Under the pieces are notes generated by a model. That model saw only the letters and a program-made list of their open reading frames with translations, had not been told where the DNA came from and searched no databases. Positions 3,501 through 33,356 of a stretch of DNA of 64,000 nt are shown in pieces. Both the position numbers and the translations under genes were made by a program. This DNA is from Candidatus Spongiisociaceae bacterium (GTDB lineage: Bacteria > Actinomycetota > Acidimicrobiia > Spongiisociales > Spongiisociaceae), in NCBI GenBank assembly GCA_965219685.1, contig CBDCOH010000002.1, forward strand, positions 3,136,001 to 3,200,000. The letters run 5' to 3'. Positions within the stretch are counted from its first letter, which is position 1; the number at the start of each line of letters is the position of its first letter.

Positions 3501-6500
3501 CGGCCGCCTGCGGCGGCGAACCTGGGCCGCTGGTTGTGGACCAGCCTGCGGGGGGCGGCGAAGGTGTGCAGCAACTCGCCGGGTGTTCCGTCCTTGGCAG
3601 CTGCCAGTATTTCCACGCTGATCCACGCGTCCGAGTTCACGCCTTCGACGCCGAACAGTGTGATGCTCTGCACTGCTGTGTCCCGACTTCCGGTCGTGAA
3701 TCCCTGCAGATATGTCGTCTCGACCGCACCTACCGACAAGGTGGCAAGCGGACGCTGCATCGCGTTGGTCAGCACCGTCGTCTCGTTGGGTCCGCTCCGC
3801 ACCGCAGCGCTTTCGCTCGGCCCGCTAGGTCCGTCGCCGTTGCGGGCCCTGACGCGGTACTCGTACTCGGTCCACGCGTCGACGCCGGTGTCCACGAACG
3901 CGGTCGCGGCGCTGCCGGTGTCGTTCACCAGCGTCTCGAACGCATCATCGGGGTCCTCCGCGGGTCTGCGACGCAGGATCTGGTAGCCGGTCACGGTCGG
4001 GTCGGCCGGGTCGTCCCAGCTCAAAGCAATCGCGCCATCCGCAGTCTCGGCCGCGGCGAGTCCCCGCGGCGCGGCCGGCGGCTGCGCTCCTGCGGTCTCG
4101 TTGCTGACAGCCAGGCCGCTGAACGGCTGGGCCGGCAGACCGAGCGCGCCGGCCCGGACGTAGTCGGGCCCTGAGGGCTGCTGGTAGCTGACCCGCACGC
4201 TCTGGCCCGGCTCTACAGGCGAGGCCAGTGCCAGCACGACCTCGCTGCCGGCGACGGTGGCGTCTTCGACAGGTCGGTCGCTGCCGTCGGCAGCGACCGT
4301 GAACGCGGTCGGGGGCAGCGTGACCGACGGATCCAACATCTCTGCCCAGGTGAGGACCATTTCGTCCCGGTCGACGGTCGCCTGGTGCAGCCTCACATAG
4401 GCCATGGCCACCGGGGCGGTGGGATCGCTGGTAACTGTCTCGTCGACGCCGCGGTCGTCGGCGAAGCTCACTCGCACCGCGACGGCATGGCCCGCGTCCG
4501 CGGCGTTCGGCGTGTACGCGGGACCGGTCGCGCCCTCGATGTCGGTGTGGCCGGTCTCGGAGTCGTCGTCTGCGCGGATCCATTGGTAGGCGAACACGGC
4601 GTTGTCCATTCCGCCGGGGTCGTAAATGCTCGACGTGTCCGCTCGCAGCGTCTCCCCGGCCTGGGCGATGCCGCGGATCGTCGGCTTGCCCGTCGCGGGG
4701 CGGTTCGGCCGCGGCGTGACGGTCGGTGTGGGATCGCTGGTCAGCGACTCTTCGTTGCCGCGGTCGTCGGCGAAGCTCACTCGCACCGCGACGGTATGGC
4801 CCTCGTCGGTGTCGGTCAGCGTGTAGTCGGCGCCGGTCGCGTCCGCGATGTCGACTGCGCCGGTCTCGGAGTCGCCGTCGATGTGGACCCATTGATAGTC
4901 GAAGGTCGCCTTCTTCAGCCCGTCCGCGTCGGAGATCGCCTTGGTGTTCGCCCGCAGCGTGTCCCCCACCCGGGCCTTGCCGAGTATCGCCGTGCCCGAC
5001 CACCAGGCAGGACTGTTGACCCCATTGACCGACCGGAGTCCCACGTCGGAGCCGGCGAAGGTGTCGCTGGTCAGCGACTCGGCGTAGCCGCCGCGGTCGA
5101 CGAACGAGACGCGGACGCTGATCGAGCGTGCGGTGTAGGCTTCGGTCCAGATGTAGGTGGGCAGGGTCGCGCCGTCGATCTCGGTCTCGACGCCGCCGTC
5201 TGAGGCGATCCACTGGTAGCGGAAATGGACGCTGTCGAGTCCGTCGGCGTCGTCGATGCCTGCGGTGTCTGCCCACAGCGTGGCGCCGGTCCGGGCCTTG
5301 CCGCCGATCACGGGCGCGCCTGAAGCCGGCCGATTCGCCGCCCTAGGCCGTCTGCCCGAGGCGTACTGGCTGGTCGCGTTCATGCTCTCGATCGGTGACC
5401 AGGCCGAGACGCCCTGGTCGTTCGAAGCCCGGACACGGAACCAGAGCGTGGAGTCCGGGTCCAGACCGCTGATGATCGCGCCCTCGCCGTAGAAGGCGAT
5501 CTCGACGCCGTCGCCGGGCAGGTCAAGCCAGCCGCCACGCCAGACCTGCACGTCGTAGGAGAAGGCGCCCGACACCGCGTCCCAGGAGAGGTCGACCCCG
5601 CCGACGAACACCGCCGTGGCGTCAGGACGGCCAGGCACCTCCGGCGCGGTCAGCGAACGAACAGACGACCTCTGGGAATTACGGGACTTCGGTGCCAGCG
5701 GCTGCTGGTCGTCACGAGACCTCTCCTCCGCCTGAACCGGCACCTGTAGGCCGAGGCTGGTCGTGAGCGGCTCGTTGTCGGCGGTGCACAATGCGCCGCC
5801 GTCTTTGCCGCAGCTTCCGCCGCCCATGAGCATGATCGAGACCGCGGCCGCGCCGTCGGGCCGGATGGTCAGTTCCCAGAGATCCAGGCGGCCGTCCACC
5901 TGGGCCACGTCGCTCAGCGTGCCGCCTGTCAGCAGCAGCCGCTCGCGCAGGCCCTCGGCTGTGGTCTGCACGTCGTGGCTGAACTCGATCCGGACACGGA
6001 ACTCGGTTTCGCCGTCGTGCGACCCGGGCGCCTCGCTGAAGCTCGCCGTCAGTTCGCCGCTCGCCGATTCCCCGAGAACGCTGTTGCCGATGCTGTTGCC
6101 GATGCTGTTACCTCCGTCGGGCAGCGCGTAGGCGTCGATCCTGCCAATGGGGTTGGTCACCCAGATCGTCTCGTTGTCCGACCAGATACCGCCCGGGGGC
6201 ATGGAGCTGACATTGCGCAGCTTGATGTCAAGCAAAGGGCGGCGCTCGCCCGTGTCCAGAACGTAGGCCCGCAGCCAGTCGCGGCTGGCTGCCCACATCG
6301 TCGTGCCGTCCGACCAAATGCCGTACGCGGGGAAGTGGCCGAAGCGATCAGACTCCGCGATCGTGCGGGTGGCCACATCCAGGGTGTAAATCCCGCGAGG
6401 TTGCTGCCCGCTCAACAAGACACCGCTCAACCAGATAGTCGAACCGTCCGACCAGATGCCATTCACGTGCAGACCCCTCAGGTTGTAGTCCATCGCGGCC

Positions 6501-18570: not shown

Positions 18571-18722
18571 CGGCGGCGTCTGCACTTTGAGGAGAGGAGT
18601 GAGTTACGCCGTTCCCGTTTCGTGGGGTTGCTGCCCCATCGTTGGTTGACCACGGTCCTGTTCCCGGTTCGTCGGCGGGTCGGGCTGGGGTTAGGTGGCG
18701 GAGCGAAGGTGGTGCCCGTCGG

Positions 18723-20168
18723 ATGCGTCCGGTGGGTTTGTTGGACCGTCTGCGGTGGGCTGATAGCGATGGACGGCTGGGCTGCTCTGGTTTGGCGCTG
18801 GCCGGTTTGGTCATCGCGTTGGTGGTGGAGGACACCGGCTTGTGGGGCCGCGGGTTCGTGCCGGTGCGGTATCGGCGGCTGGCAGCGGAGTCGGGCTACT
18901 CGCGGTCAACGGTGGCCCGCCGCCTGCCAGTGGTGCTGCAGCGACTCGCCGCGGTGGGCGTCGTCGACTACCGGCGCCGTCCGGGGGAGGCCTATCGGGT
19001 GCGGCTGGTGGTGGAACTCGACGTGTTGCAGCGTTGGGGGGTGGCGTGGGTGCCGTGGCCTCTGGCTGACGCGTCGCATCGGCTCCATCCGGGGGGGTGG
19101 TCTCACACGGACCGGGCCCGGGCCGCGGCCTGGTGGAGCTTCGCCAACTGGAATGGTGACATCAACGGTGCGGTGGGTGTCGAGGGTCTCGCCGCCCGCG
19201 TGGGGCTACGTCCCTCCACTCTCAAGCGGGGTCCGACTCCGGAGGGTCTGTGGTCAGACCCAGGCAAGTGTCTCTCGGTTAGCGGCTGGTCTGACGCTGG
19301 TCTGGGTGCCCATCGGCGGGATGTGCGCTATGAGGATTATCGGTGCGCGGTTGCGGCCCGCTCAGGTCGGGAGGGGGCATCGGTCCGCCGGGACGAACAC
19401 GTCCCCAATTCCTCAGCGGCGCTAGACGGTTTCGCCGAGGACCACAGCGGGGCTGATCTCTGGGAACGGTGGGGTGGTCTCATCGACGGATCCCCCAACC
19501 CTGTTGATACAACCACCAACTCTCGTACATCTTCGGCTGCGTCGTTCTTGAACTCCGGTGAAGGGATCGAAGATCACAACCAGGTGCAGAGACCGGCCGG
19601 TGGGACCTGTGGTCCGGCACGGCGGAGGACTCGCCGCACTCCGGACCGGTGGCGTTACGAAGCCGCCACCACGTCAGCCCGGTGGGAGGGGCCTGCCCCG
19701 GAGCACGTGAGGGGTCTGGCTCGACGGTTCGGGTGGCATGTCGCCGAGCAGGCCGCCCTGGAAACGCATCGGGTGGTGACGTTGGGTCGCCCGGTCCGCT
19801 CGGCTAAGGGGTTGGCTACCCATTTCGCGGTGTGTTTCGCCCGTCCCGGGTCGTGTTCGGGCCAGCATTCGGGGCCGTGCGGTCGGCTGCGGCTGGACCA
19901 GCACCGGGCGCGGCGTCTCGACGAGGAACAGGACCAGACCACCGCAAACCTCAACACGTCGGTCCGGAACCCGACCCGGACGGATCCGACCGTTGAAGGG
20001 GCGGCGGCTGCCCGAACCGGTAAGGAAGACCGGCCGGCCGATCCGGCTGCGGCCCTTGCCGAAGCCGCAAAGGATGCCTCCCCGCGGCTAAGGGCTCTCG
20101 CGGCGCGGGTCAGCAAACGGTTCGCCAGCACAACACCCGATTGCATCGGAACGGAAGCTGGTCCATGA
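18723..20168 (+). CDS. Putative replication initiator with HTH motifs
   Basis: HTH-like YRRLAAESGYSRSTVARRL and GLAARVGLRPSTLKR; stop overlaps the dnaB start (ATGA); start uncertain (ORF opens at 18642). Confidence 0.5.
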   Translation: MRPVGLLDRLRWADSDGRLGCSGLALAGLVIALVVEDTGLWGRGFVPVRYRRLAAESGYSRSTVARRLPVVLQRLAAVGVVDYRRRPGEAYRVRLVVELDVLQRWGVAWVPWPLADASHRLHPGGWSHTDRARAAAWWSFANWNGDINGAVGVEGLAARVGLRPSTLKRGPTPEGLWSDPGKCLSVSGWSDAGLGAHRRDVRYEDYRCAVAARSGREGASVRRDEHVPNSSAALDGFAEDHSGADLWERWGGLIDGSPNPVDTTTNSRTSSAASFLNSGEGIEDHNQVQRPAGGTCGPARRRTRRTPDRWRYEAATTSARWEGPAPEHVRGLARRFGWHVAEQAALETHRVVTLGRPVRSAKGLATHFAVCFARPGSCSGQHSGPCGRLRLDQHRARRLDEEQDQTTANLNTSVRNPTRTDPTVEGAAAARTGKEDRPADPAAALAEAAKDASPRLRALAARVSKRFASTTPDCIGTEAGP

Positions 20169-21595
20169 CCTTGGTGTCTCCGCAGCAGGTCTCAGGTCCC
20201 GGGAGCCCGAAAGTGCCTCCACACAGCGCAGAAGCGGAGGAATCGGTGATCGGTGCCCTGCTCCGGTCACGGACGGTCACCGACGATGTGTTCGACCGGC
20301 TGGCTGCCGAAGATTTCTACGTTCCCTCGCACCGCCGCATCTTCTCTGCTATGCGTGGTCTCTACGACGGGAACCAGCCGATCGACACCGTAACCGTGGT
20401 CGACCGGCTCCACCGCGCAGACAAGCTGCAAGCCGTCGGCGGTCCCGTAGCGGTGACCAAATTCTGGGACCAGGTACCTTCCGCCGCGAACGTCGGCTAC
20501 TACACCCGGGTAGTGGAGGAACACGCGCTGAGGCGGCGGATGCTGACCGCGGCCTACTGCGCCATCGAGTTGGCTACTGACCTCTCAGGCGAAATCGACG
20601 CGGCCCTAGAGGGGGCGGAGCGGGCCATGCTGGCGGTCGGGGAGCGGCGAGCCGGCGGCGACCTCCCTCTGTTGGGCGACCTCATACCAGGAGTCCTCGA
20701 GGACCTCGAGCGGCTTGAGACCCAAGGCCGCGACGTTGCGGGTGTTCCCACCGGCCTGCCGGATCTCGACCTCATGCTCGGTGGCCTACAGCCGTCCACG
20801 CTGGTAGTCGTGGCAGGCCGGCCCGGGATGGGCAAGAGTGCCCTAGCCATGAACATCGCCTCGTTCGTGGCGATCCATCACGGACCGGTAGCGTTCTTCT
20901 CCCTCGAGATGTCCTCCCGCGACATGGCAAGACGCTGGTTGGCCTCCGAGGCGGGGGTGGACTCCATGACGCTACGAACCGGTCGGGAACCCGGAGGGCA
21001 ACAAGGGGATTCGCCACAGACGTGGGCGGCGCTTATCCAGGCTGCCTTCGGCCTCGAGGGGGTGCCCCTCCACATCGACGAGTGGTCACGAACAGTCGGG
21101 GAAGTCCGAACCAAGACCCGCCGACTCAAACGCAACCAAGGACTCGAGCTGGTAGTGGTGGACTACATGCAACTCATGGTGGCGTCGGGTCGCCGAAGGG
21201 AGAACCGCCAACAAGAAATCGCGGAGATCAGCCGCAACCTCAAAGGGCTCGCCAGCGAACTGGCGATCCCGGTGATCGCGGTCTCCCAACTCAACCGGGC
21301 GCTCGAGTCCCGCCACAACAAACGGCCCCAACTGGGTGACCTGCGCGAGTCCGGAGCGATCGAACAAGACGCCGATGTGGTACTGATGGTTTACCGCGAC
21401 GACTACTACCACCCGAAAACCACAGAGCCGGGCATCGCCGAGATAATCGTGGCCAAGCATAGGTCCGGACCCAACGGTGTGATCAAGACCACCTTCTCCG
21501 CCGAACACACCCGCTTCGGCACCCAGCCCCACCACAGCAGCCGCACGGCACAGCCCAAGGATCCCGACCCCGGCGGACCCTGTACCGACGCGTGA
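20165..21595 (+). CDS. dnaB: Replicative DNA helicase DnaB (element-encoded)
   Basis: PPHSAEAEESVIGALL, AGRPGMGKS, FFSLEMS, VVVDYMQLM, SQLNR, DLRESGAIEQDAD, AKHRSGP. Confidence 0.93.
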   Translation: MTLVSPQQVSGPGSPKVPPHSAEAEESVIGALLRSRTVTDDVFDRLAAEDFYVPSHRRIFSAMRGLYDGNQPIDTVTVVDRLHRADKLQAVGGPVAVTKFWDQVPSAANVGYYTRVVEEHALRRRMLTAAYCAIELATDLSGEIDAALEGAERAMLAVGERRAGGDLPLLGDLIPGVLEDLERLETQGRDVAGVPTGLPDLDLMLGGLQPSTLVVVAGRPGMGKSALAMNIASFVAIHHGPVAFFSLEMSSRDMARRWLASEAGVDSMTLRTGREPGGQQGDSPQTWAALIQAAFGLEGVPLHIDEWSRTVGEVRTKTRRLKRNQGLELVVVDYMQLMVASGRRRENRQQEIAEISRNLKGLASELAIPVIAVSQLNRALESRHNKRPQLGDLRESGAIEQDADVVLMVYRDDYYHPKTTEPGIAEIIVAKHRSGPNGVIKTTFSAEHTRFGTQPHHSSRTAQPKDPDPGGPCTDA

Positions 21596-21798
21596 CGACC
21601 GGACGATCCCGACCCGTGGAGAACCCCCGTGGTCGGCGGGCTCGGCGCAGCCAATAGCCACTCCGTCTTCCCGCCGGCGGTGTACCGACCAGGTCGACGC
21701 TGTGGGCAGCCACACACGGACAGGACAGAACCGGTCCGTCGTCAGCGGCTAGGCGCAGAAAGAGGAGACGCTCGCGGAGACTCTAGATTCGATGCTGT

Positions 21799-22092
21799 TT
21801 GGAATGCCTGCACAGGATCCGGCTGGCGGCGGTTCAACAGTTCGGGACTCTCCTACCCTGCCACAGCTCGAAGGCCCTGAGCAAAGCCCGCGAGCGGCTG
21901 GCCAGACGGGGACTGATCGAGCACCGCCGACTGAGGCCGGGTCACACCGCTTGGGCACTCACACCAAAAGTGCACCTCCACCTGACCGCGACCGGTCATC
22001 TACCAGCCCTCCGGTCCGTCGAGATCGACGGTCTCAACAAGCCCTCACACCCCGCGGTACTGCCGAAGTCATCACCACCCTCGCCCGTCTAG
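21799..22092 (+). pseudogene. Truncated winged-HTH protein resembling a Replic_Relax N-terminus
   Basis: LHRIRLAAVQQF...ERLARRGLIEHRR...WALTPK resembles the N-terminus of 13558..14463; it ends just before the IS3. Confidence 0.4.
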
Positions 22093-22167
22093 CCAACACC
22101 GCATCGAGCGCCTCACACTCATCCTCCAGAAGTGCATTGAACCGCCCCGGGTTTGCCGGAGAGTGTT

Positions 22168-23408
<1,241 letters not shown>

Positions 23409-23558
23409 GACTCCATTATCTCCCAACTAATCGAGTCTCCGGAGAAACCGGGGCGGTTCACATACCGCGGACCCCAACCCGGGGATTGAGAATAGGTCGC
23501 AACCCGCTCCTGCGGCCACCCCGCTCCAACCAAGACTGCACCTGTTGGGCTACTTGAG

Positions 23559-24695
23559 TCAGCTCACATATCGAGCCCAAGCCTCCATCAGTCGGCGGCG
23601 ACGTTCCAGCAGGTCACTCCTCGCGTAGGCCTGTTCAGCAGCCGACCCCACCCGATGCGCTAGACAAGCCTCGGCCACCTCCCGCGCCACTCCCGTCTCC
23701 CCGCACCAATCTCGAAACGAGCTTCTCATCCCATGCAATGTCCCCCCCAGATCAAGCCGTACAGGTAGCTTCGTCAAAACCCACGAACCGATCTCCCCAC
23801 CCGACACCGACGGGAACACCCAGCCTCTGGGACCCTGCGAATAGCGGCGGGCTTCGGCCAGCACCTCCACCGCCCGCCCCGACAGCGGCACCCTGTGCTC
23901 GCGGCCGGATTTCATACGATCGGCGGGAATCGTCCACGTCCCCGCCTCGAGATCGATCTCCTGCCACACCGCACACCGGACCTCGGCTGAACGGGCGGCG
24001 GTCAGCACCAAGAACTCGAACGCCAACTGAACGGTCGGATAAGTACCAGACGCCCGCACCTTGGCCAACGCTTCGCTAACCCGGCGATGCGGGAGAGCAC
24101 GATGATGTCTCTTAGCTCCGTTCTGTTTCGGCAGCGCAGCAGTAACCGCGTCACCCGCCGGGTTGTCCTGCCGATACCCCTGAGCGATGGCCCACTTCAT
24201 GACCGCCGCCACACGCTGCCGTACCCGCCGCGCCGTTTCCGGCTTAGTCGTCCAGATCGGAGACAAACAGGCCATCACGTCCGCCGACGTGACCTCATCA
24301 ACCCGCTTTGAGCCGATAACAGGCAACACATAGGCAGCCAAAGACGACCTCCACTGCCCCTCAGACTTCCCACCCGGTTTCCACTTCCCCGCGTGCAGGG
24401 CGATCACCTTCTCAACCGCCCCCCCAAACGTAGGGACAGCACCAGAGCGCAACCGCACCGGATCATCACCCCCCAGCGCCGCTCTGCGGTACTCGAACGC
24501 CTTCGCCCGAGCCTCCGCAAGACTCACATACGGGTAACGACCCAACCCCAAATCCCGTCGCTTGCCGTTCACGGTTCCCCGCCAGATCCACGCCTTCGAA
24601 CCAGACGGCTGAACCCGAAGCATCAAACCATGCTCATCGCCATACTTGCCCGCCCTGGACACCGAACGCACAAACGCGGCTGTCAACTTTGGCAA
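23559..24695 (-). CDS. P4-type tyrosine integrase with N-terminal arm DNA-binding domain
   Basis: KLTAAFV...GLMLRV...GLGRYPYVSLAEAR arm domain; catalytic LTAARSAE, MKSGREHRVPL, HGMRSSFRDW, LAH, AYARSD; TTG start after a purine-rich RBS. Confidence 0.92.
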   Translation of the reverse strand: MPKLTAAFVRSVSRAGKYGDEHGLMLRVQPSGSKAWIWRGTVNGKRRDLGLGRYPYVSLAEARAKAFEYRRAALGGDDPVRLRSGAVPTFGGAVEKVIALHAGKWKPGGKSEGQWRSSLAAYVLPVIGSKRVDEVTSADVMACLSPIWTTKPETARRVRQRVAAVMKWAIAQGYRQDNPAGDAVTAALPKQNGAKRHHRALPHRRVSEALAKVRASGTYPTVQLAFEFLVLTAARSAEVRCAVWQEIDLEAGTWTIPADRMKSGREHRVPLSGRAVEVLAEARRYSQGPRGWVFPSVSGGEIGSWVLTKLPVRLDLGGTLHGMRSSFRDWCGETGVAREVAEACLAHRVGSAAEQAYARSDLLERRRRLMEAWARYVS

Positions 24696-24894
24696 TTCCC
24701 TCTCCCTCCCCGTCCCACAGCGTACCACTAAGCGTCCCACACACAAATGCAACTACCCGGAACCGAAGGGAGGGTCAGGAAACAGCCCTGGCCTGCTGTT
24801 CGCTAAGGGTGAGCTGATAGAAGGGCTAGATAAATACCCGTTGACCTGGGTGTATGGTCACTTCTGAAACGTGGAGTGACAACCAGCAACGTCG

Positions 24895-24967
24895 TGGGCC
24901 CGGAGGGAATCGAACCCTCGACCTTCGGATTAAAAGTCCGCTGCTCTGCCGACTGAGCTACAGGCCC
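24895..24967 (-). tRNA. tRNA-Lys (anticodon TTT)
   Basis: GGGCCTGTAGCTCAGTCGGCAGAGCAGCGGACTTTTAATCCGAAGGTCGAGGGTTCGATTCCCTCCGGGCCCA folds as a cloverleaf; CCA not encoded. Confidence 0.96.
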
Positions 24968-25041: not shown

Positions 25042-26847
25042 GTGATCGGCTACGGATACTCGGGGATGCCCACCTCAGGGATGGCCGACGGCGCCTTCCT
25101 CGACGGGCTGGAGGAACGGGGCCACCAAGCCTTCGAGTTGGCCTTCACAAGAGGGTTCCCCTGGAACGAGAGGAGGTGTGCCCGGTTCGGCCGGGCAGCC
25201 GCTGATCGGGGAATCGGGCTCTCGGTCCATGCCCCGTACTTCGCAGTGCTCACGGTTGCCGACGAGGACCGGGCCAAGCAGTGCAGGGGAGCATTGGAGC
25301 ACACGCTGAAGCTGGGCGCCGAGTTGGGCGCCCGGATCGTCGTCTCTCATCTGGGACCGCGGAGGGAGGAGGATCCCGAGGTATTGCTGGACCGGATGTG
25401 CGAGCACCTCGGTTGGATCGGGTCCAAGGTGGCAGGACTGGGGGTGTCGCTCGGATTGGAGACCACGGGCCGGGCCCGCCATATGGGCAGCCTCGGAGAC
25501 ATTGCCCTGCTCTCCGCCGAGTTCCCATTCGTCCGGCCGGTGGTCGACTGGGCGCACGTGCACGCCATCAGCCAGGGCGGATTGGTGTCCCCCGAGGCCT
25601 TCTCCGCTGTGTTCGCGTTCCTGCGGGACAACTTTCCGGCTTGGAAGGTGGATCCACTCCATACCCAATTCAGCGACGTGTTGTACGGGGAGATGGGCGA
25701 GATCCGCCACCTCCCCTACGGTGAGGGGACCCTTCGAGCCGAGCCTCTGGTCAAGGCCGCACGGGAGGCCGGGATACGCATGACGGTCATCTCCGAGTCC
25801 CGCGATATGCGGTCGCACGATGCCATCCACTCCGAGATAGCCGTGGCCCTCCTGGCTTCGGAGCCTGAAACTACGGGTACTCGCCCGGTGGCGAGCGGCG
25901 CTATCGAGTTCCCTGTAGCTCCGCGGGTTCGGGACACCGCCGAAGGGTTCGCCCTGGCCGGGTACCAGCGCCGGCTACGCCTCTCGAACCTCGACAAGAG
26001 ATTCTTCCCCGACGGCTACACGAAAGGTGATCTGATCTCGTACTACGCCTCGGTGGCCCCGGTACTGCTCCCGCATCTGGACGACAGGGCGATAGTGATG
26101 TCCAGGTATCCGGACGGCGCCGAGGGAGATTCCTTCTACGAGAAGCAGGCACCCGGTCACCAACCGGACTGGATGCCGCTCGCCCCTCTCGGATCGAGCA
26201 CCAAGGGCGGGGCCATCGATTACGTCACGGCTCTGGATGCCGAGTCGCTCATGTGGCTCGCCAACATGGGCTGCATCGAGATCCACCCGTGGCTGTCCCG
26301 TCTACGCGATATCGAATCCGAGGACTTCGCGGTGTTCGATCTCGATCCCGCCGAAGGGGCCGGCTGGGAGCAGGTCGTGTCGGTGGCCAAGCTGCTCGGG
26401 GTGGCGCTGGACCGGCTGGGATTGCGCGGCTATCCGAAGACCTCCGGATCCCGCGGGATACACGTGTACGTCCCGCTGGAACCCGGGCACACGTACCGGA
26501 GGGTGCGGCGTTTCGTCGAGCGGGTCGGGCAACTGCTGGCCGCCGCCGACCCGGAAGGCGTGACCATGGACCGGCATATACCCAACCGCAAGGGAAAGGT
26601 CTTCGTCGACGCGGGCCAGAACCGGGCAGGAGCCACGATCGCCTCCGTGTACTCGGTGCGACCCCGCCCGGGTGCACCTGTCTCCACGCCGGTGCGCTGG
26701 GAAGAACTCGATCACGTCACTCCCGGGGACTTCACCGTGGCCACGGTCTGGGACCGGATCTCCCGTCACGGGGACCTCTTCTCTCTCGTGCTGGAAGGAG
26801 GCCAAGTCCTCGACCATGCCGAGGAAGCCATGGGGATTTGTTGTTAG
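25042..26847 (+). CDS. Fusion of endonuclease IV-like TIM barrel and LigD-type primase-polymerase (PolDom) domain
   Basis: N-terminal HAPY, SHLG, GLETTGR, VDWAHVHA, FSDVLYGEMGEIRHLP, VISES; C-terminal LSNLDK..F, TKGDLISYY, RYPDG, FYEKQ, FDLDP, KTSGSRGIHVYVP, VYSVR, PVSTPVRWEEL. Confidence 0.88.
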   Translation: MIGYGYSGMPTSGMADGAFLDGLEERGHQAFELAFTRGFPWNERRCARFGRAAADRGIGLSVHAPYFAVLTVADEDRAKQCRGALEHTLKLGAELGARIVVSHLGPRREEDPEVLLDRMCEHLGWIGSKVAGLGVSLGLETTGRARHMGSLGDIALLSAEFPFVRPVVDWAHVHAISQGGLVSPEAFSAVFAFLRDNFPAWKVDPLHTQFSDVLYGEMGEIRHLPYGEGTLRAEPLVKAAREAGIRMTVISESRDMRSHDAIHSEIAVALLASEPETTGTRPVASGAIEFPVAPRVRDTAEGFALAGYQRRLRLSNLDKRFFPDGYTKGDLISYYASVAPVLLPHLDDRAIVMSRYPDGAEGDSFYEKQAPGHQPDWMPLAPLGSSTKGGAIDYVTALDAESLMWLANMGCIEIHPWLSRLRDIESEDFAVFDLDPAEGAGWEQVVSVAKLLGVALDRLGLRGYPKTSGSRGIHVYVPLEPGHTYRRVRRFVERVGQLLAAADPEGVTMDRHIPNRKGKVFVDAGQNRAGATIASVYSVRPRPGAPVSTPVRWEELDHVTPGDFTVATVWDRISRHGDLFSLVLEGGQVLDHAEEAMGICC

Positions 26848-26897: not shown

Positions 26898-27536
26898 TCA
26901 GTTGTGCTGTCCGTGTCCCATGTCCCCCGTGGGAGAAGGGTCGGCGTGCGGTTGGGCGGCCAGGCCGTTCCAGACCGTGTCGACGGTCTGTTCAATGCGT
27001 CTCCTAGATTCGGAAGCCCCGAAGATGTGCCTTGTGAAAACCGCCCCGACCATTGCCTGGACAGCTGCCTCAAGATCGACGTCGGCCCGGATCTCTCCCC
27101 GGTCCACACCGCGTTGCAGCACCGAGATCGCCTCATCCCTCCGCGGGCGTAGGAGCCGTTCCCGTAGCAGTTCGAGGAGTTCGGGACTGCGGCTCTCCTC
27201 GACGAGCAGGGCGCCGATCAGCGCGAAGCCCGGACCCCGCTGGAGGGCACGCCGGTTCTGCAGGATCATCTCGACGATGTCGGAACGTATGTCGCCGGTG
27301 TCCGGCAGCGGGCCCAGATCGTCTCTCAACGCTCCGAGCGCGGCGGCTACCAACTCCTCCTTGGAGGAGTAACGGCGGTAGATGGTGGTCTTTCCGACAC
27401 CGGCCTTGGAGGCCACCCCCTCAACGGACATTCCCGCATATCCCCGATCAGTCAATAGCTTCAGGGTTGCTCGGAGGATCGCTTGGTCGGTCTCCGGATC
27501 ACGGGGCCGGCCGGGCTTCGGGTCTTCCCGCGTCAT
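26898..27536 (-). CDS. TetR/AcrR family transcriptional regulator
   Basis: GRPRD...GYAGMSVEGVASKAGVGKTTIYRRYSSKEEL. Confidence 0.93.
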   Translation of the reverse strand: MTREDPKPGRPRDPETDQAILRATLKLLTDRGYAGMSVEGVASKAGVGKTTIYRRYSSKEELVAAALGALRDDLGPLPDTGDIRSDIVEMILQNRRALQRGPGFALIGALLVEESRSPELLELLRERLLRPRRDEAISVLQRGVDRGEIRADVDLEAAVQAMVGAVFTRHIFGASESRRRIEQTVDTVWNGLAAQPHADPSPTGDMGHGQHN

Positions 27537-27545
27537 GGGAGTAGC

Positions 27546-29102
27546 CTATTCGCCGGGGTTCCGGGATCCTTCGTCCTTCGGAAGATGGCGCGGCGGCATG
27601 AACTTCGCTATGAACACCGAGCCTGTCAGCGCCACGCCGGCCGCCACCAGGACCGCCACGCCGAGCGCATCCGAGAAGGCGGTCCTCGCCGCATCCGCCA
27701 ACCGCATCCCGACGTCGGCAGGCAACATCGCAGCTATCTTCGACGCCGCCCCCACCGAGTCGCGGGCGGCGCTCGCCGCCTCCGAGGGCAGTCCGGTCAC
27801 GGCGTCGTCCATCCTGGCTCCGTACACGGTGTTCATCACGGAGCCCATCACCGCCACGCCGAACGCCCCCGCCACCTGCCGGGTAACGTCGTTCATCGCC
27901 GAGGCCACACCGGCGTTCGCCTCAGGGACCGCTCCCATAACGGAGTCGGTGGACGGGGCCATCACGTTCCCCATGCCGAAGGCCATACAGAAGAACGTCA
28001 GGCCTATGATCCAGTACTCGGTGTTCGGGTCCCAGAATGAGATCGAGATCAGCACCGCGCCCAGCACCACGAGACCCGGTGCCACTACCTTGTTGGTGCC
28101 CAGCCTGCCAACCAGCCGGTGGCTGAGACCGGCGCCGACCGCGATCCCGAGGGCCACGGGGACCATCCGTAACCCGGCTTCCAGCGGGGTGTAGCCCTGG
28201 ACGAACTGGAGGTACTGCGTCATCCCGAACACCATCCCGAAGAGGGCGAAGAACCCGATCGAGATAGCCCCCGCACCTGCGGAGAACCTCGGGTTACGGA
28301 AGAACGCGAGGTTCAGCATCGGGTGTTCGGTCCTGATCTCCCAGTAGACGAAGATCCCGACCAGGAACGCTCCAACCGCGAAACCGGCCAGCACCAAGCC
28401 TTCCGTCCATCCCCGCACCGGGGCCTCGATGATCGAGAACACCAGAATCGTCACAGCCGAAATCGACAGGACCGCGCCGGGAACGTCCAACGGAACCGGC
28501 TCCGGATCCCGGCTCTCGGGCACCAGCAGGACCCCTGCAACCAGCGCCACGACAATGATCGGGATGTTGATGAAGAACACGGAGCCCCACCAGAAGTGCT
28601 CGAGGAGCAGGCCGCCGGCCAGGGGACCGAGACCCACACCCAGCCCGGAAACCCCGGCCCAGATCCCGATCGCCTTGCCTCGTTCTTCTCGCGGGAACAC
28701 ATTGGTGAGGATCGAAAGGGTGGACGGCATGATGAGCGCTCCCCCGACTCCCATCAGGGCGCGAGCCGCGATCAATTGACCACTCGAACCGGCCTGCGCC
28801 GCGAACAGACTCGACAGGCCGAAGACAACCAGGCCCACTTGGAGAGCGAGCCTTCGCCCGTAGCGGTCGCCCAAGGATCCCATCGTCAACAGCAACCCGG
28901 CGAAGACGAGGATGTATGCGTCCACCATCCACTGGAGGGAAGTGGCGGACGCGCCGAACTCGGTCTGCAGGGTAGGGATGGCGACATTCAGGATGGTGTT
29001 GTCCAACCCGATGATGAGAAGGCTCGTCGAGAGAACCCCGAGCGTCCACCATCGCCGCCGGTAAGCGACAGAATCTGTCGACACCGACCCCGGACTCGAC
29101 AT
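27546..29102 (-). CDS. MFS DHA2 (EmrB/QacA) family efflux transporter
   Basis: LDNTILNVAIPTL, GSLGDRYGRR, WGSVFFINIP; 14-TM pattern. Confidence 0.92.
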   Translation of the reverse strand: MSSPGSVSTDSVAYRRRWWTLGVLSTSLLIIGLDNTILNVAIPTLQTEFGASATSLQWMVDAYILVFAGLLLTMGSLGDRYGRRLALQVGLVVFGLSSLFAAQAGSSGQLIAARALMGVGGALIMPSTLSILTNVFPREERGKAIGIWAGVSGLGVGLGPLAGGLLLEHFWWGSVFFINIPIIVVALVAGVLLVPESRDPEPVPLDVPGAVLSISAVTILVFSIIEAPVRGWTEGLVLAGFAVGAFLVGIFVYWEIRTEHPMLNLAFFRNPRFSAGAGAISIGFFALFGMVFGMTQYLQFVQGYTPLEAGLRMVPVALGIAVGAGLSHRLVGRLGTNKVVAPGLVVLGAVLISISFWDPNTEYWIIGLTFFCMAFGMGNVMAPSTDSVMGAVPEANAGVASAMNDVTRQVAGAFGVAVMGSVMNTVYGARMDDAVTGLPSEAASAARDSVGAASKIAAMLPADVGMRLADAARTAFSDALGVAVLVAAGVALTGSVFIAKFMPPRHLPKDEGSRNPGE

Positions 29103-29487: not shown

Positions 29488-30231
29488 ATGGCGGATGCGG
29501 ATCGTCTCACGTACCGGGTGGAGGAGTTGGCTGCCGAGGCAGGGATCGGCGTGGACACCGTTCGCTACTACCAGGGTATGGGGCTGCTCCCGCCCACCGG
29601 CCGTGAAGGGCGATCTGTCGTCTACGAGACCGTCCACCTGACCAGGCTCAGAACGATCCGCGCGCTGGCCGACGACGGCTTCACCCTGGCCCAGATCAAG
29701 CGGCTACTCGACGACTCGGGACATCCTCTCCTCGTGTCGCTGGCCGGGAAGGTGGTCGGACTGACACGGGAGGAGTTGGCCGAGCGTTCTGGGCTGGCTC
29801 CACCGCTGATCGACATGGCCGCATCGGCAGGCCTCATCGAACCGCTGGGCGGGAGCGACGAGGAACGGTTTTCACCTGATGTGGCGCCGATGCTGGCAGC
29901 CGGGCTCTCGCTGCTCGAGGCCGGGTTCCCGCTCGACAGGCTCGCGGCGTTGGCCGCCCGGCACGCCACCGGCGTGGAAAGCGTGGTTGACGAAGCCATC
30001 GACCTCTTCAAGGATCATGTTCGGTCGGGCCAGTCCGACAGTCCCGAGGATCTGGCCGGGCTGTTCCGGACGTTGGTGACCCATGTGACCAGGCTGGTGG
30101 CCCAGCACTTCCACCACACCGTGGTCAGCCGGGTGAAGGAACGCCTCGAGGGATCCGAGGACGTGGCGCTGGTCGTAGCACTCGAGAAGGCCGGCAAGCA
30201 GCAGTTCGTCGTCTCCACCGAGTGGCGATGA
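29488..30231 (+). CDS. MerR family transcriptional regulator
   Basis: YRVEELAAEAGIGVDTVRYYQGMGLLP...HLTRLRTIRAL...GFTL. Confidence 0.88.
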   Translation: MADADRLTYRVEELAAEAGIGVDTVRYYQGMGLLPPTGREGRSVVYETVHLTRLRTIRALADDGFTLAQIKRLLDDSGHPLLVSLAGKVVGLTREELAERSGLAPPLIDMAASAGLIEPLGGSDEERFSPDVAPMLAAGLSLLEAGFPLDRLAALAARHATGVESVVDEAIDLFKDHVRSGQSDSPEDLAGLFRTLVTHVTRLVAQHFHHTVVSRVKERLEGSEDVALVVALEKAGKQQFVVSTEWR

Positions 30232-33200
30232 GTGACCGGAAGCAGCTTGAAGACCGGATCGGCAAAGCCGTAGCCCGGGCGCGGATCTCCGCGCAGCCAT
30301 CGGTCATCACCCTGGCTGCCCGAGCGGGCGAGGTCGATTCCCTCGCCTTCGTTCTGGAGGCAGGGCCTCCGTTCGCCTTCTGGGAGAGGCCTGGCTGCGG
30401 GTTCTCGATCGGCGCGGTCGGGGAGGCGGTCACCATCGACCCGGGGCACGGGCCGGGAAGGTTCGGTCGCGCCTCCTCGGCCTTGCGGTCACTGGCCGCT
30501 CGAACCCATCAGCTCGCAGTCGACGGCTCGGACCGCATGCCCCTGCTGATAGGCGGCTTCTCCTTCTGGCCGACGAGCACCTGGCCGCGGTTCCCTTCCG
30601 GACGGCTGGTGCTTCCGGACCTGGCGCTGATCTGTCGCTACCCGGGCCGGGGTGTGTGGGTGGCGGCAACCGAGGTGAGCGCCGATGACGACCCGCACGC
30701 CGTGGCCGATCGACTGACGGAACGGATCAGTGCGTGCCGCAACAGGCGCCTGGCCCTTGTAACTCCGGAGGTCATCGACCACCCGGCTGCCGGGACGGTC
30801 GACCTCGGCGATCCGGGGTTCCTGGAACGGGCGGCGGCGGCGATCGCCTCCATTAGACGGAGGGACCCCTTCCCCTCGGCGCCGCCGCCCGGGATCCGCG
30901 GCTCGGAAGAGCCGACTCCGGCGGGGACTCGGCAAGGGGAACTCAAGAAGGTCGTCCTTGCCCGCCATCTCGATGTGGAGCACCGTCCCGAACTCGGGCC
31001 GTTCCTGGCCGCGCTCCGCCACATCCACGACCGCGGCGCTGTCTTCGCCTTCGGACGGCGGGACGGTTCGATCTTCTGCGGAGCGACACCGGAGCTCCTG
31101 GCCCGGGTCGACGGGGTGAAAGTCTCCGCGCTCGCTCTTGCCGGAACCGCTCCGCGCGGGGCAAGTGCCGCAGAGGACACGCTGATCGCTGACCGTCTCC
31201 GCAACCACCCGAAGGAACTCGAGGAACACCGCTACGTGGCATCCGAAATCTCGCAGCGGCTCGAGGCGAGAGGGTTCGCGGTGGGGGATCGGGTCCCGAC
31301 CTACGTCATGAGACTGCCCGGCATCCAGCATCTGGCCACCCCTGTCAGCGCCGTGGCACCCGTCGGAACCAACGTGCTGGACGTGGTGGGCGCCCTCCAC
31401 CCCACCCCGGCCGTGGCCGGCGTTCCGCGCGACCGGGCATTGGACTGGATCTCGGAGCACGAACCCCTGCAGAGGGGCTGGTACGCGGGTCCGGTCGGGT
31501 ATTGCAACCTGGCTGGAAACGGCGAGTTCCACGTGGCGCTACGGTCCTGCCTGATCGAGGACGGTCGCACCCGGCTCTTCGCCGGCGCAGGGATCGTGGG
31601 CACCTCCTCGCCGGACGGGGAACTCGAGGAGACGAACCTCAAGCTTGATACCGTGCTGTCCTCGCTGTTCGGTATGAAGGATCATCGCTGGCGCTCCTAC
31701 GCGACCGCCGACGCCCTGGTGGCGGCCCTACGGTCGGGCTGCCCGGGAGGGGTGGTGATCTCACCTGGTTCCCGCTCCACCCCGCTCGCGCTGGCCGCCG
31801 CGTCGGGCGGATTGCCGGTCCGGGTGGTGCTGGACGAACGTTCGGCCGGCTTCGTCGCCCTCGGGATGGCCAAGGCCTCGGGGCGGCCGGCCGCTCTGAT
31901 CTGCACCTCCGGCTCGGCGGCGGCCAACTACCTGCCCGCGGTGGCAGAAGCTGACCGGGCCCGCACACCCCTGGTGGTGGTGACGGCTGATCGACCGCCC
32001 GGTTTCCTGGCTAGGGATAACCCTCAGACCATCGACCAGGTCGGCTTGTACGGATCGCGCGTCAGAGCGGCCTCCAACCTGGGGGTCGCCCACGAGTGCA
32101 ACCCGCAGGAGGTCAGAGACGAAACCCTTCGCCTGCTCGAAGCCGCCCGGTCGCCTCACGCCGGTCCTGTGCACATCAACGTCCCGTTCGCCAAGCCACT
32201 CGAGCCGCCCGACGGCCACCGAATGCGGATCGACGCCATCCCGCCCGAAGCACCCGTGCGACAGGCCGCCGACTCCACGGCGGTAGCGGTGCTCACCGAC
32301 TTCATCGCGCGGGCTCAGCGGGGGCTCATCGTCGCGGGACCTCGCGCCACCGACCCGGCCGAGAGGGCGGCGCTCGTACGGTTTTCGAAGGCGGCCGGTT
32401 GGCCGATCATGGCCGACGGGATGTCGGGTATGCGTTCCTCGAGCCACGAACATCTCGTCACCACCGGGGACCTCCTTCTACGGGACATGCGCTTCGCGGC
32501 GGGACACACGCCTGACGCGATCCTGCGGATCGGCGCCACCCCCACCGGTACCATCACCCAGAACTGGTTGGAGGCCCTCGAAGCTCCCACGGCCTTCCTC
32601 GATCCCGACTACCGCTGGACGGCCCCGGGACCCGCGATGGTGCTGCGAGACCCGATCGCCGCGTTGCTCGAGGCGGTGTCGCCGACTCCTCTCGATCCGG
32701 CATGGTCGGAGTCATGGCGCGCGGCGGAGGCACGGATAGGCGGGCTCCGCAGGCGGGAAGGCTCCCACTACCCCGACACCGAACTGGCGGTGACAGCTGC
32801 AGTACTCGAGTCCGAACGGCTGGTGTGGACCGCTTCGAGCATGCCGGTTCGCCACGTCGACGCGATGATGGAACCGGGATGCGGCGCGCTGGTGCTCGGC
32901 AACCGGGGCGCCTGCGGGATCGACGGAACCATCGCCTCGGCCGCCGGCGCCGCCCTGGCTTTCGGCCGGCGGGTGACCGCACTGGTCGGCGACCTCGCCT
33001 TTCTGCACGATGCCGGATCGCTCGTCGCGGCCCGCCAGCTACGCGCAGACCTAACAGTGGTGGTACTCGACAACGGCGGCGGCGCCATCTTCGAGATGCT
33101 CCCTTACCTCCGGTCGCTACGTGAAGCGGATGACCACGAAGCCCTCGCCCAAGCGAGGGAACTCTTCGTCACCCCCCACGAGCAGGATCTGGCCGCGGTG

Positions 33201-33356
33201 GCCGCGGGATTCGGTGTCACCGCCGAGCGTGTCTCACCACGGCGGATCGGGGACGCTCTAGCCGGGGCTCACGAGCAGTCAGGTCCCTGCGTGTTCGTCA
33301 TCCCGAGCGATCCATCCGCCATGTTCGCCGCGTACGACCGGTTGTCAAGCCTCTAG
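30228..33356 (+). CDS. menD: Fused isochorismate synthase (MenF) / SEPHCHC synthase (MenD)
   Basis: KKVVLAR, GATPELL, ALAGT, KELEEH, LHPTPAVAG, RGWYAGPVG, FAGAGIV (MenF); then SPGSRSTPL, DERSAGF, CTSGSA, TADRP, NRGACGIDG, GDLAFLHD, NGGGAIF (MenD) in one ORF. Confidence 0.92.
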   Translation: MSDRKQLEDRIGKAVARARISAQPSVITLAARAGEVDSLAFVLEAGPPFAFWERPGCGFSIGAVGEAVTIDPGHGPGRFGRASSALRSLAARTHQLAVDGSDRMPLLIGGFSFWPTSTWPRFPSGRLVLPDLALICRYPGRGVWVAATEVSADDDPHAVADRLTERISACRNRRLALVTPEVIDHPAAGTVDLGDPGFLERAAAAIASIRRRDPFPSAPPPGIRGSEEPTPAGTRQGELKKVVLARHLDVEHRPELGPFLAALRHIHDRGAVFAFGRRDGSIFCGATPELLARVDGVKVSALALAGTAPRGASAAEDTLIADRLRNHPKELEEHRYVASEISQRLEARGFAVGDRVPTYVMRLPGIQHLATPVSAVAPVGTNVLDVVGALHPTPAVAGVPRDRALDWISEHEPLQRGWYAGPVGYCNLAGNGEFHVALRSCLIEDGRTRLFAGAGIVGTSSPDGELEETNLKLDTVLSSLFGMKDHRWRSYATADALVAALRSGCPGGVVISPGSRSTPLALAAASGGLPVRVVLDERSAGFVALGMAKASGRPAALICTSGSAAANYLPAVAEADRARTPLVVVTADRPPGFLARDNPQTIDQVGLYGSRVRAASNLGVAHECNPQEVRDETLRLLEAARSPHAGPVHINVPFAKPLEPPDGHRMRIDAIPPEAPVRQAADSTAVAVLTDFIARAQRGLIVAGPRATDPAERAALVRFSKAAGWPIMADGMSGMRSSSHEHLVTTGDLLLRDMRFAAGHTPDAILRIGATPTGTITQNWLEALEAPTAFLDPDYRWTAPGPAMVLRDPIAALLEAVSPTPLDPAWSESWRAAEARIGGLRRREGSHYPDTELAVTAAVLESERLVWTASSMPVRHVDAMMEPGCGALVLGNRGACGIDGTIASAAGAALAFGRRVTALVGDLAFLHDAGSLVAARQLRADLTVVVLDNGGGAIFEMLPYLRSLREADDHEALAQARELFVTPHEQDLAAVAAGFGVTAERVSPRRIGDALAGAHEQSGPCVFVIPSDPSAMFAAYDRLSSL

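Follow-up and report, generated by a model that had tools for sequence, protein, structure and literature searches.

In bacteria, non-homologous end joining (NHEJ) has been described in terms of three LigD modules, a polymerase, a 3'-phosphoesterase (PE) and a ligase, which in split, archaeal-type systems are separate proteins alongside Ku. The endonuclease IV (EndoIV) family is known for the incision of abasic (AP) sites and the removal of 3' blocks. Here, we analyzed a stretch of 64,000 nucleotides (nt; referred to as the window) from Candidatus Spongiisociaceae bacterium (assembly GCA_965219685.1, contig CBDCOH010000002.1, positions 3,136,001-3,200,000, forward strand), in which a single gene joins an EndoIV-like TIM barrel to a LigD-type primase-polymerase. 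We consider this fusion to be a conserved "clean and fill" enzyme, i.e., an EndoIV-type nuclease joined to a LigD-type polymerase, with a probability of roughly 0.75. Judging from its sequence, an order of widespread marine, sponge-associated and soil Acidimicrobiia appears to link a LigD-type polymerase to a different and unrelated end-cleaning enzyme.

When compared to LigD and the split NHEJ systems, the fusion shares the polymerase family, the catalytic Asp triad, the lysines that we take to contact the 5'-phosphate, and the lack of the C-terminal element known as Loop 3. As in these systems, a (putative) 3'-processing module and a polymerase lie on one chain, and Ku is usually present in the genomes concerned. 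The fusion differs in having neither ligase nor PE, in that its processing module would be an unrelated EndoIV-type TIM barrel, and in that its gene is unlinked to Ku. The mycobacterial set of EndoIV, Prim-PolC and LigC has the same order of chemistry, with EndoIV-type 3' cleaning, fill-in by an archaeo-eukaryotic primase (AEP) and sealing by a separate ligase, as described in passages of PMC5663958. However, its members are separate proteins, Prim-PolC bound LigC1 and not Ku (the same passages), and the fusion polymerase has no Loop 3.

Full-text literature searches, with supplements and subscription journals outside their scope, returned no paper on the barrel-polymerase architecture, in agreement with an earlier sequence-only reading of the window that knew of no characterized example. 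The text of a structural review of LigD contains neither "endonuclease" nor "fused" (PMC8656161), and in the accessible portion of a comparative census of NHEJ only combinations of LIG, POL and PE are counted (PMC7719229). A metagenome survey of repair enzymes describes, in the portion available, a different fusion (RMMBL-LigB), and the terms "TIM barrel", "xylose isomerase", "AP endonuclease" and "Nfo" do not occur there (PMC10140301).

Domain layout and conservation of the fusion

The open reading frame (ORF) listing and translation gave one frame without interruption (25042-26847, plus strand, 601 codons), and its GTG start is consistent with homologue lengths of 599-605 amino acids (aa). 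The parts of the gene are as follows.

25042..26847, plus strand: whole gene, fusion of an EndoIV-like barrel and a LigD-type primase-polymerase (601 aa, GTG start, stop included)
25042..25857, plus strand: TIM-barrel domain, residues 1-272, with an EndoIV-like metal-dependent phosphodiesterase fold (AlphaFold2 model, VIA-align, PF01261)
25228..25797, plus strand: nine predicted metal-ligand codons, H63 (25228), H103 (25348), E140 (25459), D169 (25546), H172 (25555), H207 (25660), E220 (25699), H223 (25708) and E252 (25795), from the HMMER alignment of the family profile to Thermotoga maritima Nfo (2x7v); also Q209 (25666) and Y66 (25237)
25858..25968, plus strand: inter-domain segment, residues 273-309, the least conserved part of the fusion (conservation and model)
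25969..26811, plus strand: LigD-type primase-polymerase domain, residues 310-590 (PF21686, TIGR02778, structure-sequence alignments), with catalytic residues D433 (26338), D435 (26344) and D523 (26608); also K319, K328, F365, Y366 and K368
26812..26844, plus strand: C-terminal tail, 11 residues past the modelled domain and 21 past the Pfam match, without a Prim-PolC-type Loop 3

The two domain identities and the single 601-aa frame proposed by the sequence-only reading held up. Pfam assigned PF01261 (AP_endonuc_2, the xylose-isomerase-like TIM barrel) to residues 24-257 (4.7e-26) and PF21686 (LigD_Prim-Pol) to residues 327-580 (3.9e-89, 299 bits, model positions 1-254 of 254), and the same scan of the 601-aa protein detected no ligase family (no PF01068) and no PE family (no PF13298), as that reading had also stated. 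Every motif it had quoted was located in the translation: HAPY (residue 63), ETTG (140), DWAH (169), LHTQFS (206), GEIRHLP (219) and ISES (250) in the barrel, and DLD (433) and KTSGSRGIH (466) in the polymerase. The DNA ligase D model TIGR02776 scored 245.4 bits against a cut-off of 373.2, with the polymerase part alone matching. Sources name the fusion homologues "non-homologous end-joining DNA ligase" or "bifunctional NHEJ protein LigD", much as had been predicted of automated pipelines; since the fusion has no ligase domain, "NHEJ DNA ligase" is a misnomer, and the fusion flags a systematic mis-annotation.

Conservation across fused proteins fell to 0.47-0.56 at residues 261-300, and short beta strands were predicted within the inter-domain segment (280-282, 295-299 and 302-306). 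The full-length model had a mean per-residue confidence (predicted local distance difference test, pLDDT) of 92.2 and a predicted template modelling score (pTM) of 0.84; residues 271-280 alone were weak (pLDDT 64), followed by values of 88-91, a pattern that fits a defined two-domain body better than two beads joined by a string.

A word-indexed search returned 3825 proteins at E<=0.001 among 8000 candidates, and among the matches listed 120 of 120 carry both Pfam domains (59-100% identity, 588-681 aa). On contigs representing one genome per species, 147 stretches encode a relative of the fusion, 80 of which were kept for study; by tblastn, all 80 match over both domains, save some that are cut by contig ends. 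The kept loci are labelled as Actinomycetota (68, including 61 Acidimicrobiia), Acidobacteriota (7) and Pseudomonadota (2), with 3 unlabelled, and the labels outside Actinomycetota, which stand on metagenome bins, are taken with reserve. From an even draw of 151 Acidimicrobiia genomes, 37 of them from the window's own order, a full-length match (query residues 1-4 to 598-601) was obtained in 28, this genome included. All 28 belong to that order (28/37) and none to other orders, whose genomes gave listed rows that matched the polymerase half only. The fusion is a real conserved gene and not an assembly accident, and in the class sample it is spread vertically through one order. The sequence-only reading had named a stop or frameshift at the linker, or relatives that always have two separate genes, as fatal to its proposal; instead, the intact frame is conserved across the relatives, which are fused.

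Four loci (L013, L024, L030 and L081) seemed to be without a fusion ORF, which we read as an artefact of ORF picking that favours longer antisense frames (e.g., 5989-7854, minus strand, in L024), as each of the four still has a tblastn match that extends over at least residues 1-590.

Similarity of the barrel to endonuclease IV

Residues 1-295 were searched against 1.84 billion representative sequences (E<=0.001). Among the 736 matches were fused proteins, numerous relatives that stand alone (~260-300 aa, 27-39% identity) and a single 600-aa protein whose domains lie in reversed order. Stand-alone relatives carry source names such as "deoxyribonuclease-4" and "TIM barrel protein". When 18 barrel relatives, mostly stand-alone, were scanned with NCBIfam, nfo models were best or nearly best in all 18 (18.6-65.9 bits, all under cut-off), with weaker matches to the cobamide phosphodiesterase CbiR; in Pfam, UvdE was weakly matched in 3 of 21 barrel relatives.

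AlphaFold2 was used to model residues 1-295 from a 90-row alignment, giving a mean pLDDT of 94.3, a pTM of 0.90, and eight beta/alpha units with a final helix at residues 256-272. Foldseek E-values had no power to separate EndoIV from sugar epimerases within this superfamily, so a second look with VIA-align was needed. There, the top eight rows were EndoIV chains (Z 25.9-27.1, 260-268 residues aligned, root-mean-square deviation (rmsd) 2.5-2.8, 16-17% identity), led by 4hno (Z 27.1, rmsd 2.8, 267 aligned) and 2x7v (Z 27.0), with E. coli Nfo chains at Z 25.9-26.7. Rank nine was MJ1311 of Methanocaldococcus jannaschii (3wqo, titled D-tagatose 3-epimerase-like) at Z 25.8, and other sugar epimerases and isomerases reached at most 24.1. 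The modelled fold is thus closest to the solved EndoIV structures, but the margin is small. A profile of the barrel family searched against all PDB sequences gave MJ1311 first (9.4e-19), followed by EndoIV and APN1 chains (1.6e-18 to 9e-11), UVDE (~1e-9) and epimerases (3.5e-6 or worse).

By fold and by profile, the barrel is nearest to EndoIV. Bacterial Nfo (E. coli 1qtw/1qum, T. maritima 2x7v/4hno) is its best structural match, and all nine ligand positions align. It differs from Nfo in its low identity, in a score of 20.3 bits to the nfo model TIGR00587 (cut-off 129.65), in a Glu (E220) that replaces the Asp of Nfo at one ligand position, and in a beta-7 His that varies within the fused family.

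We take the nine aligned positions to be those that bind the three metals of Nfo; the ligand roles were reportedly set out by Hosfield in 1999. Eight of them are invariant in 122/122 fused proteins. The ninth, position 207 on beta-7, is His in 93 and Gln in 29 of the 122. Two residues on, Q209 aligns to the Asn of the Nfo HLND motif, and this position is Gln in 97/122 fused proteins; the pair 207/209 is H/Q in 68, Q/Q in 29 and H/H in 25. Alignment A1, whose 90 rows are mostly stand-alone barrel relatives, has H/H in 76 rows. The remark of the sequence-only reading that LHTQFS stands where LHxHFS is usual is right for this wider family, and within the fused family HxQ is the commonest form. 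Compared at these positions, the fused lineage appears to have shifted one metal site relative to the wider barrel family, and one of its metal sites may differ from that of Nfo. Y66, presumably equivalent to the AP-site-sensing Tyr72 of Nfo, is Tyr in 117/122 and Phe in 5/122 fused proteins.

The archaeal-type motif pattern noted earlier also fits, as the best solved-structure profile match is the archaeal MJ1311, which shares the HxH beta-7 motif of the wider barrel family. Passages of PMC2770678 list MJ1311 as the M. jannaschii EndoIV homologue and report AP-endonuclease and 3'-5' exonuclease activity for Pyrococcus furiosus PF0258 (PfuAPE), 13.5% identical to E. coli Nfo, so low identity is no bar to nuclease function. 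Both archaeal proteins differ from the fusion in being stand-alone (~270-290 aa), and the entry of MJ1311 is titled epimerase-like.

Fold is no proof of nuclease function, and we weighed a barrel that is not a nuclease at all, i.e., one that is sugar or sugar-phosphate isomerase- or epimerase-like, nucleotide-modifying, or a structural or DNA-binding scaffold, leaving the protein a LigD-type polymerase with an accessory domain. PF01261 spans many isomerases, the Foldseek E-values do not tell the two groups apart, the VIA-align Z values differ little (27.1 versus 24.1, and 25.8 for MJ1311, whose title is epimerase-like), the nfo score lies under the model's cut-off, and the beta-7 His is Gln in many members. 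Against this, the nine positions match the three-metal set of Nfo and eight are invariant, sugar epimerases of the TIM-barrel fold, as far as known, use four metal ligands, EndoIV outranks the epimerases in profile E-value by more than 10 orders of magnitude, and the partner is a DNA polymerase in both domain orders (see below). On balance, a non-nuclease barrel appears improbable.

Placement of the polymerase

The polymerase domain scored 244.5 bits to TIGR02778 (ligD_pol), above the cut-off of 214.7 and over model positions 2-244 of 245. In 2iru, the M. tuberculosis LigD polymerase, the DxD motif is the aligned counterpart of D433 and D435 and the VFVD motif that of D523; these three residues as well as K319, K328, F365, Y366 and K368 are invariant in 122/122 fused proteins. 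We assume for them the catalytic and 5'-phosphate pocket roles known from work on the M. tuberculosis polymerase domain. In end-to-end alignments to solved polymerases, the "NHEJ polymerase" 5dmu scored 182.9 bits, Prim-PolC 180.6 (5op0) and 180.3 (6sa0), the M. tuberculosis LigD polymerase 147.6 (2iru), and 2fao 140.9. 5op0 is Prim-PolC, a group defined by a conserved C-terminal extension with Loop 3 (passages of PMC5663958).

The sequence-only reading had drawn an analogy to mycobacterial Prim-PolC, which these comparisons do not support. In the same passages (PMC5663958), Loop 3 is proposed to adapt Prim-PolC to gaps in a continuous template, and its absence is argued to let NHEJ polymerases anneal breaks. 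Neither Loop 3 nor its YPKM motif was found in the fusion, which has only 21 residues past the Pfam polymerase match. The domain also scores no better to Prim-PolC than to the NHEJ polymerase. A paralogue in the same genome (354 aa, 34% identical to the fusion polymerase) has YPKM at residue 333 and scores 319.5 bits to 6sa0 versus 126.6 to 5dmu; the genome thus already encodes a true Prim-PolC, with a LigC-type ligase beside it. It also has a short EndoIV of its own.

For 35 polymerase domains, a maximum-likelihood tree was calculated in a quick run with support from the Shimodaira-Hasegawa-like approximate likelihood ratio test (SH-aLRT) only, and one frameshift-truncated row was left out. 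A branch with 100% SH-aLRT parts two Prim-PolC-like rows from all others, fused proteins included, and at 84% support the fused proteins group with the polymerases of PE-Pol, Pol-PE, PE-Lig-Pol LigD and the reversed fusion, i.e., on the side of the LigD- and PE-linked enzymes. By these sequence measures, the polymerase is classed as NHEJ-type and not as Prim-PolC.

Related architectures

Six of the best-scoring polymerase-only matches from other orders were fetched (40-47% identity), chosen for their long frames (541-775 aa). Three proved to be PE-Pol and one Pol-PE; the other two are bare polymerases, one of them immediately downstream of Ku and the other preceded by a spurious upstream frame. 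The four PE-containing proteins (L090, L091, L092 and L095; 43-47% identity) are, like the fusion, ligase-less and two-domain; they come from other Acidimicrobiia orders, fall in the same broad tree group, and rank with the nearest non-fused polymerase relatives found. Three of them have their accessory domain, like the barrel of the fusion, N-terminal to the polymerase; in all four, this domain is the LigD 3'-phosphoesterase PF13298 and not a TIM barrel. Given this PE-Pol layout, the slot N-terminal to the polymerase is occupied by PE in other lineages of the class and by the EndoIV-like barrel in this order. The remaining candidate for a new N-terminal domain, the 610-aa frame of L093, was set aside, its first 330 residues being rich in Arg, Gly and Pro and without Pfam match, as a spurious extension in a high-GC genome.

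The reversed protein from the barrel search, P0131 (600 aa), has its polymerase at residues 30-281 and its barrel at 347-581, and among full-length barrel matches beyond the window's own family the latter scores highest (169.5 bits). Three 600-aa reversed members are recorded from Actinomycetota bins, and an 85%-identical reversed copy (L089:5001-6802) lies in a genome of Candidatus Aquicultoria, in another actinobacterial class. Its frame is broken in two (5001-5768 overlapping 5765-6802), as would result from a frameshift or assembly error. Barrel and polymerase travel together in both domain orders. We do not claim two independent fusions, as the P0131 barrel scores best outside the family and the polymerase tree does not settle the branching.

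One genome of the order (G086) was considered as a possible split gene and is instead read as having a polymerase-only orthologue (L088:1760-2746, 328 aa, 55% identical). The linker and the downstream HisA-like gene are retained, so the barrel has been lost in this genome; the protein encoded upstream is an unrelated, repeat-rich one of 828 aa.

Ku, ligases and phosphoesterase in this genome and its order

As the sequence-only reading had noted, the window holds no Ku gene. The sole Ku match of this genome, which is 96.7% complete, lies ~1.67 Mb off at C2:1489890. The genome encodes two LigD-family polymerases, the fusion and the Prim-PolC paralogue, so that the fusion is the only NHEJ-type polymerase found in this Ku-bearing genome, and no PE domain (PF13298) was matched anywhere in it. 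Its ATP-dependent ligases are one LigB-type and one LigC-type; the latter has 380 aa with adenylation and oligonucleotide-binding (OB) domains only. The Prim-PolC orthologue and the convergent LigC-type ligase are ~1.4 kb apart (C2:1261883-1265213; L003, L005), as in mycobacteria, and a separate EndoIV-like gene is located at C2:3813507-3814265 (252 aa, 111.5 bits to nfo, likewise below the cut-off). Since all three are encoded separately, a mycobacterial-style set of EndoIV, Prim-PolC and LigC exists apart from the fusion.

Among the 37 sampled genomes of the order, Ku was found in 25/28 with the fusion and 4/9 without it, PE in 6/28 with the fusion (absent from 22) and 3/9 without it, and an ATP-dependent ligase in 34/37. 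The three fusion-less genomes with PE hold it beside Ku and a polymerase, as a single PE-Lig-Pol frame in G110 and G142, whereas the ligase is in broken pieces in G038. Of the 25 genomes that have both the fusion and Ku, 15 show a ligase-domain match no more than 3 kb from Ku, in an open frame of 314-470 aa, with the Pol and PE matches elsewhere.

A complex of two Ku chains and the polymerase domain was predicted with a score of 0.37 (runs 0.37, 0.41 and 0.34), compared to 0.00 for the best of 3 controls. The runs agreed in at least 83% of contacts and the partner pLDDT was at least 84. In calibration, 116 of 157 solved complexes passed the mark, as did 2 of 215 mismatched pairs, and passes at scores of at most 0.60 came from 18 of the 157 and from both passing mismatches; unlike the calibration, the present run used its own alignments and two Ku copies. 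This model lends weak support to a contact between a Ku dimer and the polymerase domain.

Proposed function

We favour the fusion as the end-processing and fill-in module of a split NHEJ apparatus because of the Loop-3-less polymerase, the separate Prim-PolC/LigC/EndoIV set, the distribution of Ku and PE, and the PE-Pol relatives. For the barrel as a stand-in for PE in a split Ku-dependent end-joining set, the odds appear evenly balanced. The enzymatic activities, the Ku partnership and the choice of ligase are all what we infer. The N-terminal barrel would act as an EndoIV-type multi-metal phosphodiesterase, in the place held by PE in LigD and in some related polymerases. It would remove 3' blocks (3'-phosphate, 3'-phosphoglycolate or unsaturated aldehyde). 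Its action, which could also include trimming of 3' nucleotides or ribonucleotides and incision of abasic sites close to the break, would leave a 3'-OH. Gripping the 5'-phosphate, the polymerase would fill in the gap across the annealed break, with ribonucleoside triphosphates as the probable substrates. Ku, whose gene lies elsewhere, would keep hold of the ends for sealing by a separate ATP-dependent ligase.

Several observations weigh against this proposal, in addition to the low nfo score and the beta-7 His that is often Gln. No Ku-adjacent or LigD-type ligase was found in this genome, and no repair gene recurs next to the fusion in 76 related loci, where no linkage to Ku or ligase was seen either. 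Ku was not found in three fusion genomes (G028, G078 and G126), two of which (G078 and G126, of one genus, ~100% and ~95% complete) have the full fusion with neither a Ku nor an ATP-dependent ligase match. Six fusion genomes also have PE, and among the fusion genomes looked at, three have an additional LigD-type polymerase that stands alone (L128-L130). The fusion is therefore not a strict replacement of PE, nor is it the sole polymerase in every case. The branching among barrel-Pol, PE-Pol and LigD polymerases is not settled inside the 84% group, the six relatives from other orders, picked for length, are not a fair sample, and the 37 genomes are kin, their counts being descriptive only and not independent.

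Some of these points favour Ku-independent repair, in which the barrel would incise 5' of an AP site or take off a 3' block left by a lyase, the polymerase would fill a gap of one to a few nt, and any ligase (LigA, LigC or LigB) would seal. G078 and G126 keep the fusion with no Ku or ATP-dependent ligase found, the gene is unlinked to Ku in the 76 loci, and Y66 is Tyr or Phe throughout at the position presumed to match Tyr72 of Nfo. In passages of PMC5663958, mycobacterial EndoIV is the best gap-processing nuclease before synthesis by Prim-PolC/LigC and co-purified with LigC; LigD-family enzymes act on AP and deoxyribose phosphate (dRP) lesions too (parts of PMC4770248 and PMC6547435); and for the archaeal PF0258, as a precedent, both AP-endonuclease and 3'-5' exonuclease activity have been demonstrated (PMC2770678, in part). 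Against it stand the lack of Loop 3, a genome that has a separate Prim-PolC, LigC-type ligase and EndoIV, Ku in 25/28 fusion genomes, and polymerase relatives some of which carry PE, an end-healing rather than an AP-incising module. We consider this alternative possible, if doubtful. It is close to what the sequence-only reading had proposed, a one-protein excision enzyme coupling AP-site incision to gap filling; of that proposal, the pairing of a cleaning with a filling domain stands and the analogy to Prim-PolC is not supported, and the co-occurrence with Ku and the pattern of PE point more to end processing in end joining than to base-excision repair as a pathway of its own. Nor do the two readings exclude one another; LigD enzymes and Ku process abasic sites at breaks too (parts of PMC6547435, PMC4770248 and PMC4245934).

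Beyond an end-processing module of NHEJ, the fusion may, more speculatively, represent a new class of break-repair enzyme in which an EndoIV-type three-metal nuclease has displaced PE. A single chain could then act as a "dirty-end" repair machine that incises abasic sites, strips any 3' block and resynthesizes, working with Ku at double-strand breaks, or alone with LigA where Ku and the ATP-dependent ligases have been lost, and the Gln-for-His change would reflect an altered metal or substrate preference, e.g., for trimming of 3'-ribonucleotides. We regard this extended version as tentative and rather unlikely as a whole. If the activities are confirmed, the fusion would be a natural non-orthologous replacement of the PE domain, a physical link from abasic-site processing to break repair, and a compact two-activity enzyme of possible use as a reagent.

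Genomic neighbourhood and a nearby integrated element

The ORFs of the 80 related loci were clustered, 76 loci entered the neighbour counts, and representatives of twelve recurrent clusters were scanned. Around the fusion, a HisA-like barrel, an aldehyde dehydrogenase and MerR recur most often, along with a 1019-aa family and sometimes an integrase. The HisA-like gene (PF00977, ~357 aa, e.g., L066:7848-8918) is next downstream in 24/71 loci and anywhere nearby in 34/76. It is absent in this window, where a TetR/MFS pair (26898-29102, minus strand) lies directly downstream instead, and the fusion has no ligase neighbour here. Upstream, the following features were identified.

24894-24967, minus strand: tRNA-Lys(UUU), 75 bases upstream of the fusion
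23559-24752, minus strand: tyrosine integrase that carries an Arm-DNA-binding domain, past tRNA-Lys and ~290 bases upstream of the fusion
22168-23088 and 23085-23426, minus strand: IS3-family transposase, two frames
20141-21595, plus strand: DnaB-like helicase

The integrase, IS3 transposase and DnaB-like helicase form an integrated element (20141-24967) beside tRNA-Lys(UUU). It could be asked whether the fusion belongs to this element as its primase-polymerase, given an integrase only ~290 bases upstream and an integrase-family neighbour in 8/76 related loci. The tRNA lies between integrase and gene, however, and since its 3' end faces the integrase, the island runs leftwards, away from the fusion. 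The vertical spread through one order, a polymerase that is LigD-type and not of a mobile-element primase-polymerase family, and the recurrence in integrase-less relatives of genes that lie downstream in this window (MerR and the 1019-aa family, taken to be its MenF-MenD-type protein) also speak against it, making such an origin highly improbable. An ORF of 508 aa (18642-20168) has no Pfam match.

Further downstream, a 1044-aa protein (30222-33356) combines a chorismate-binding (isochorismate-synthase-like) domain with the N and C domains of thiamine pyrophosphate (TPP) enzymes, resembling MenD. A family of similar size (median 1019 aa) occurs in 15 related loci, and its members are presumably the same MenF-MenD-type protein as seen in the window.

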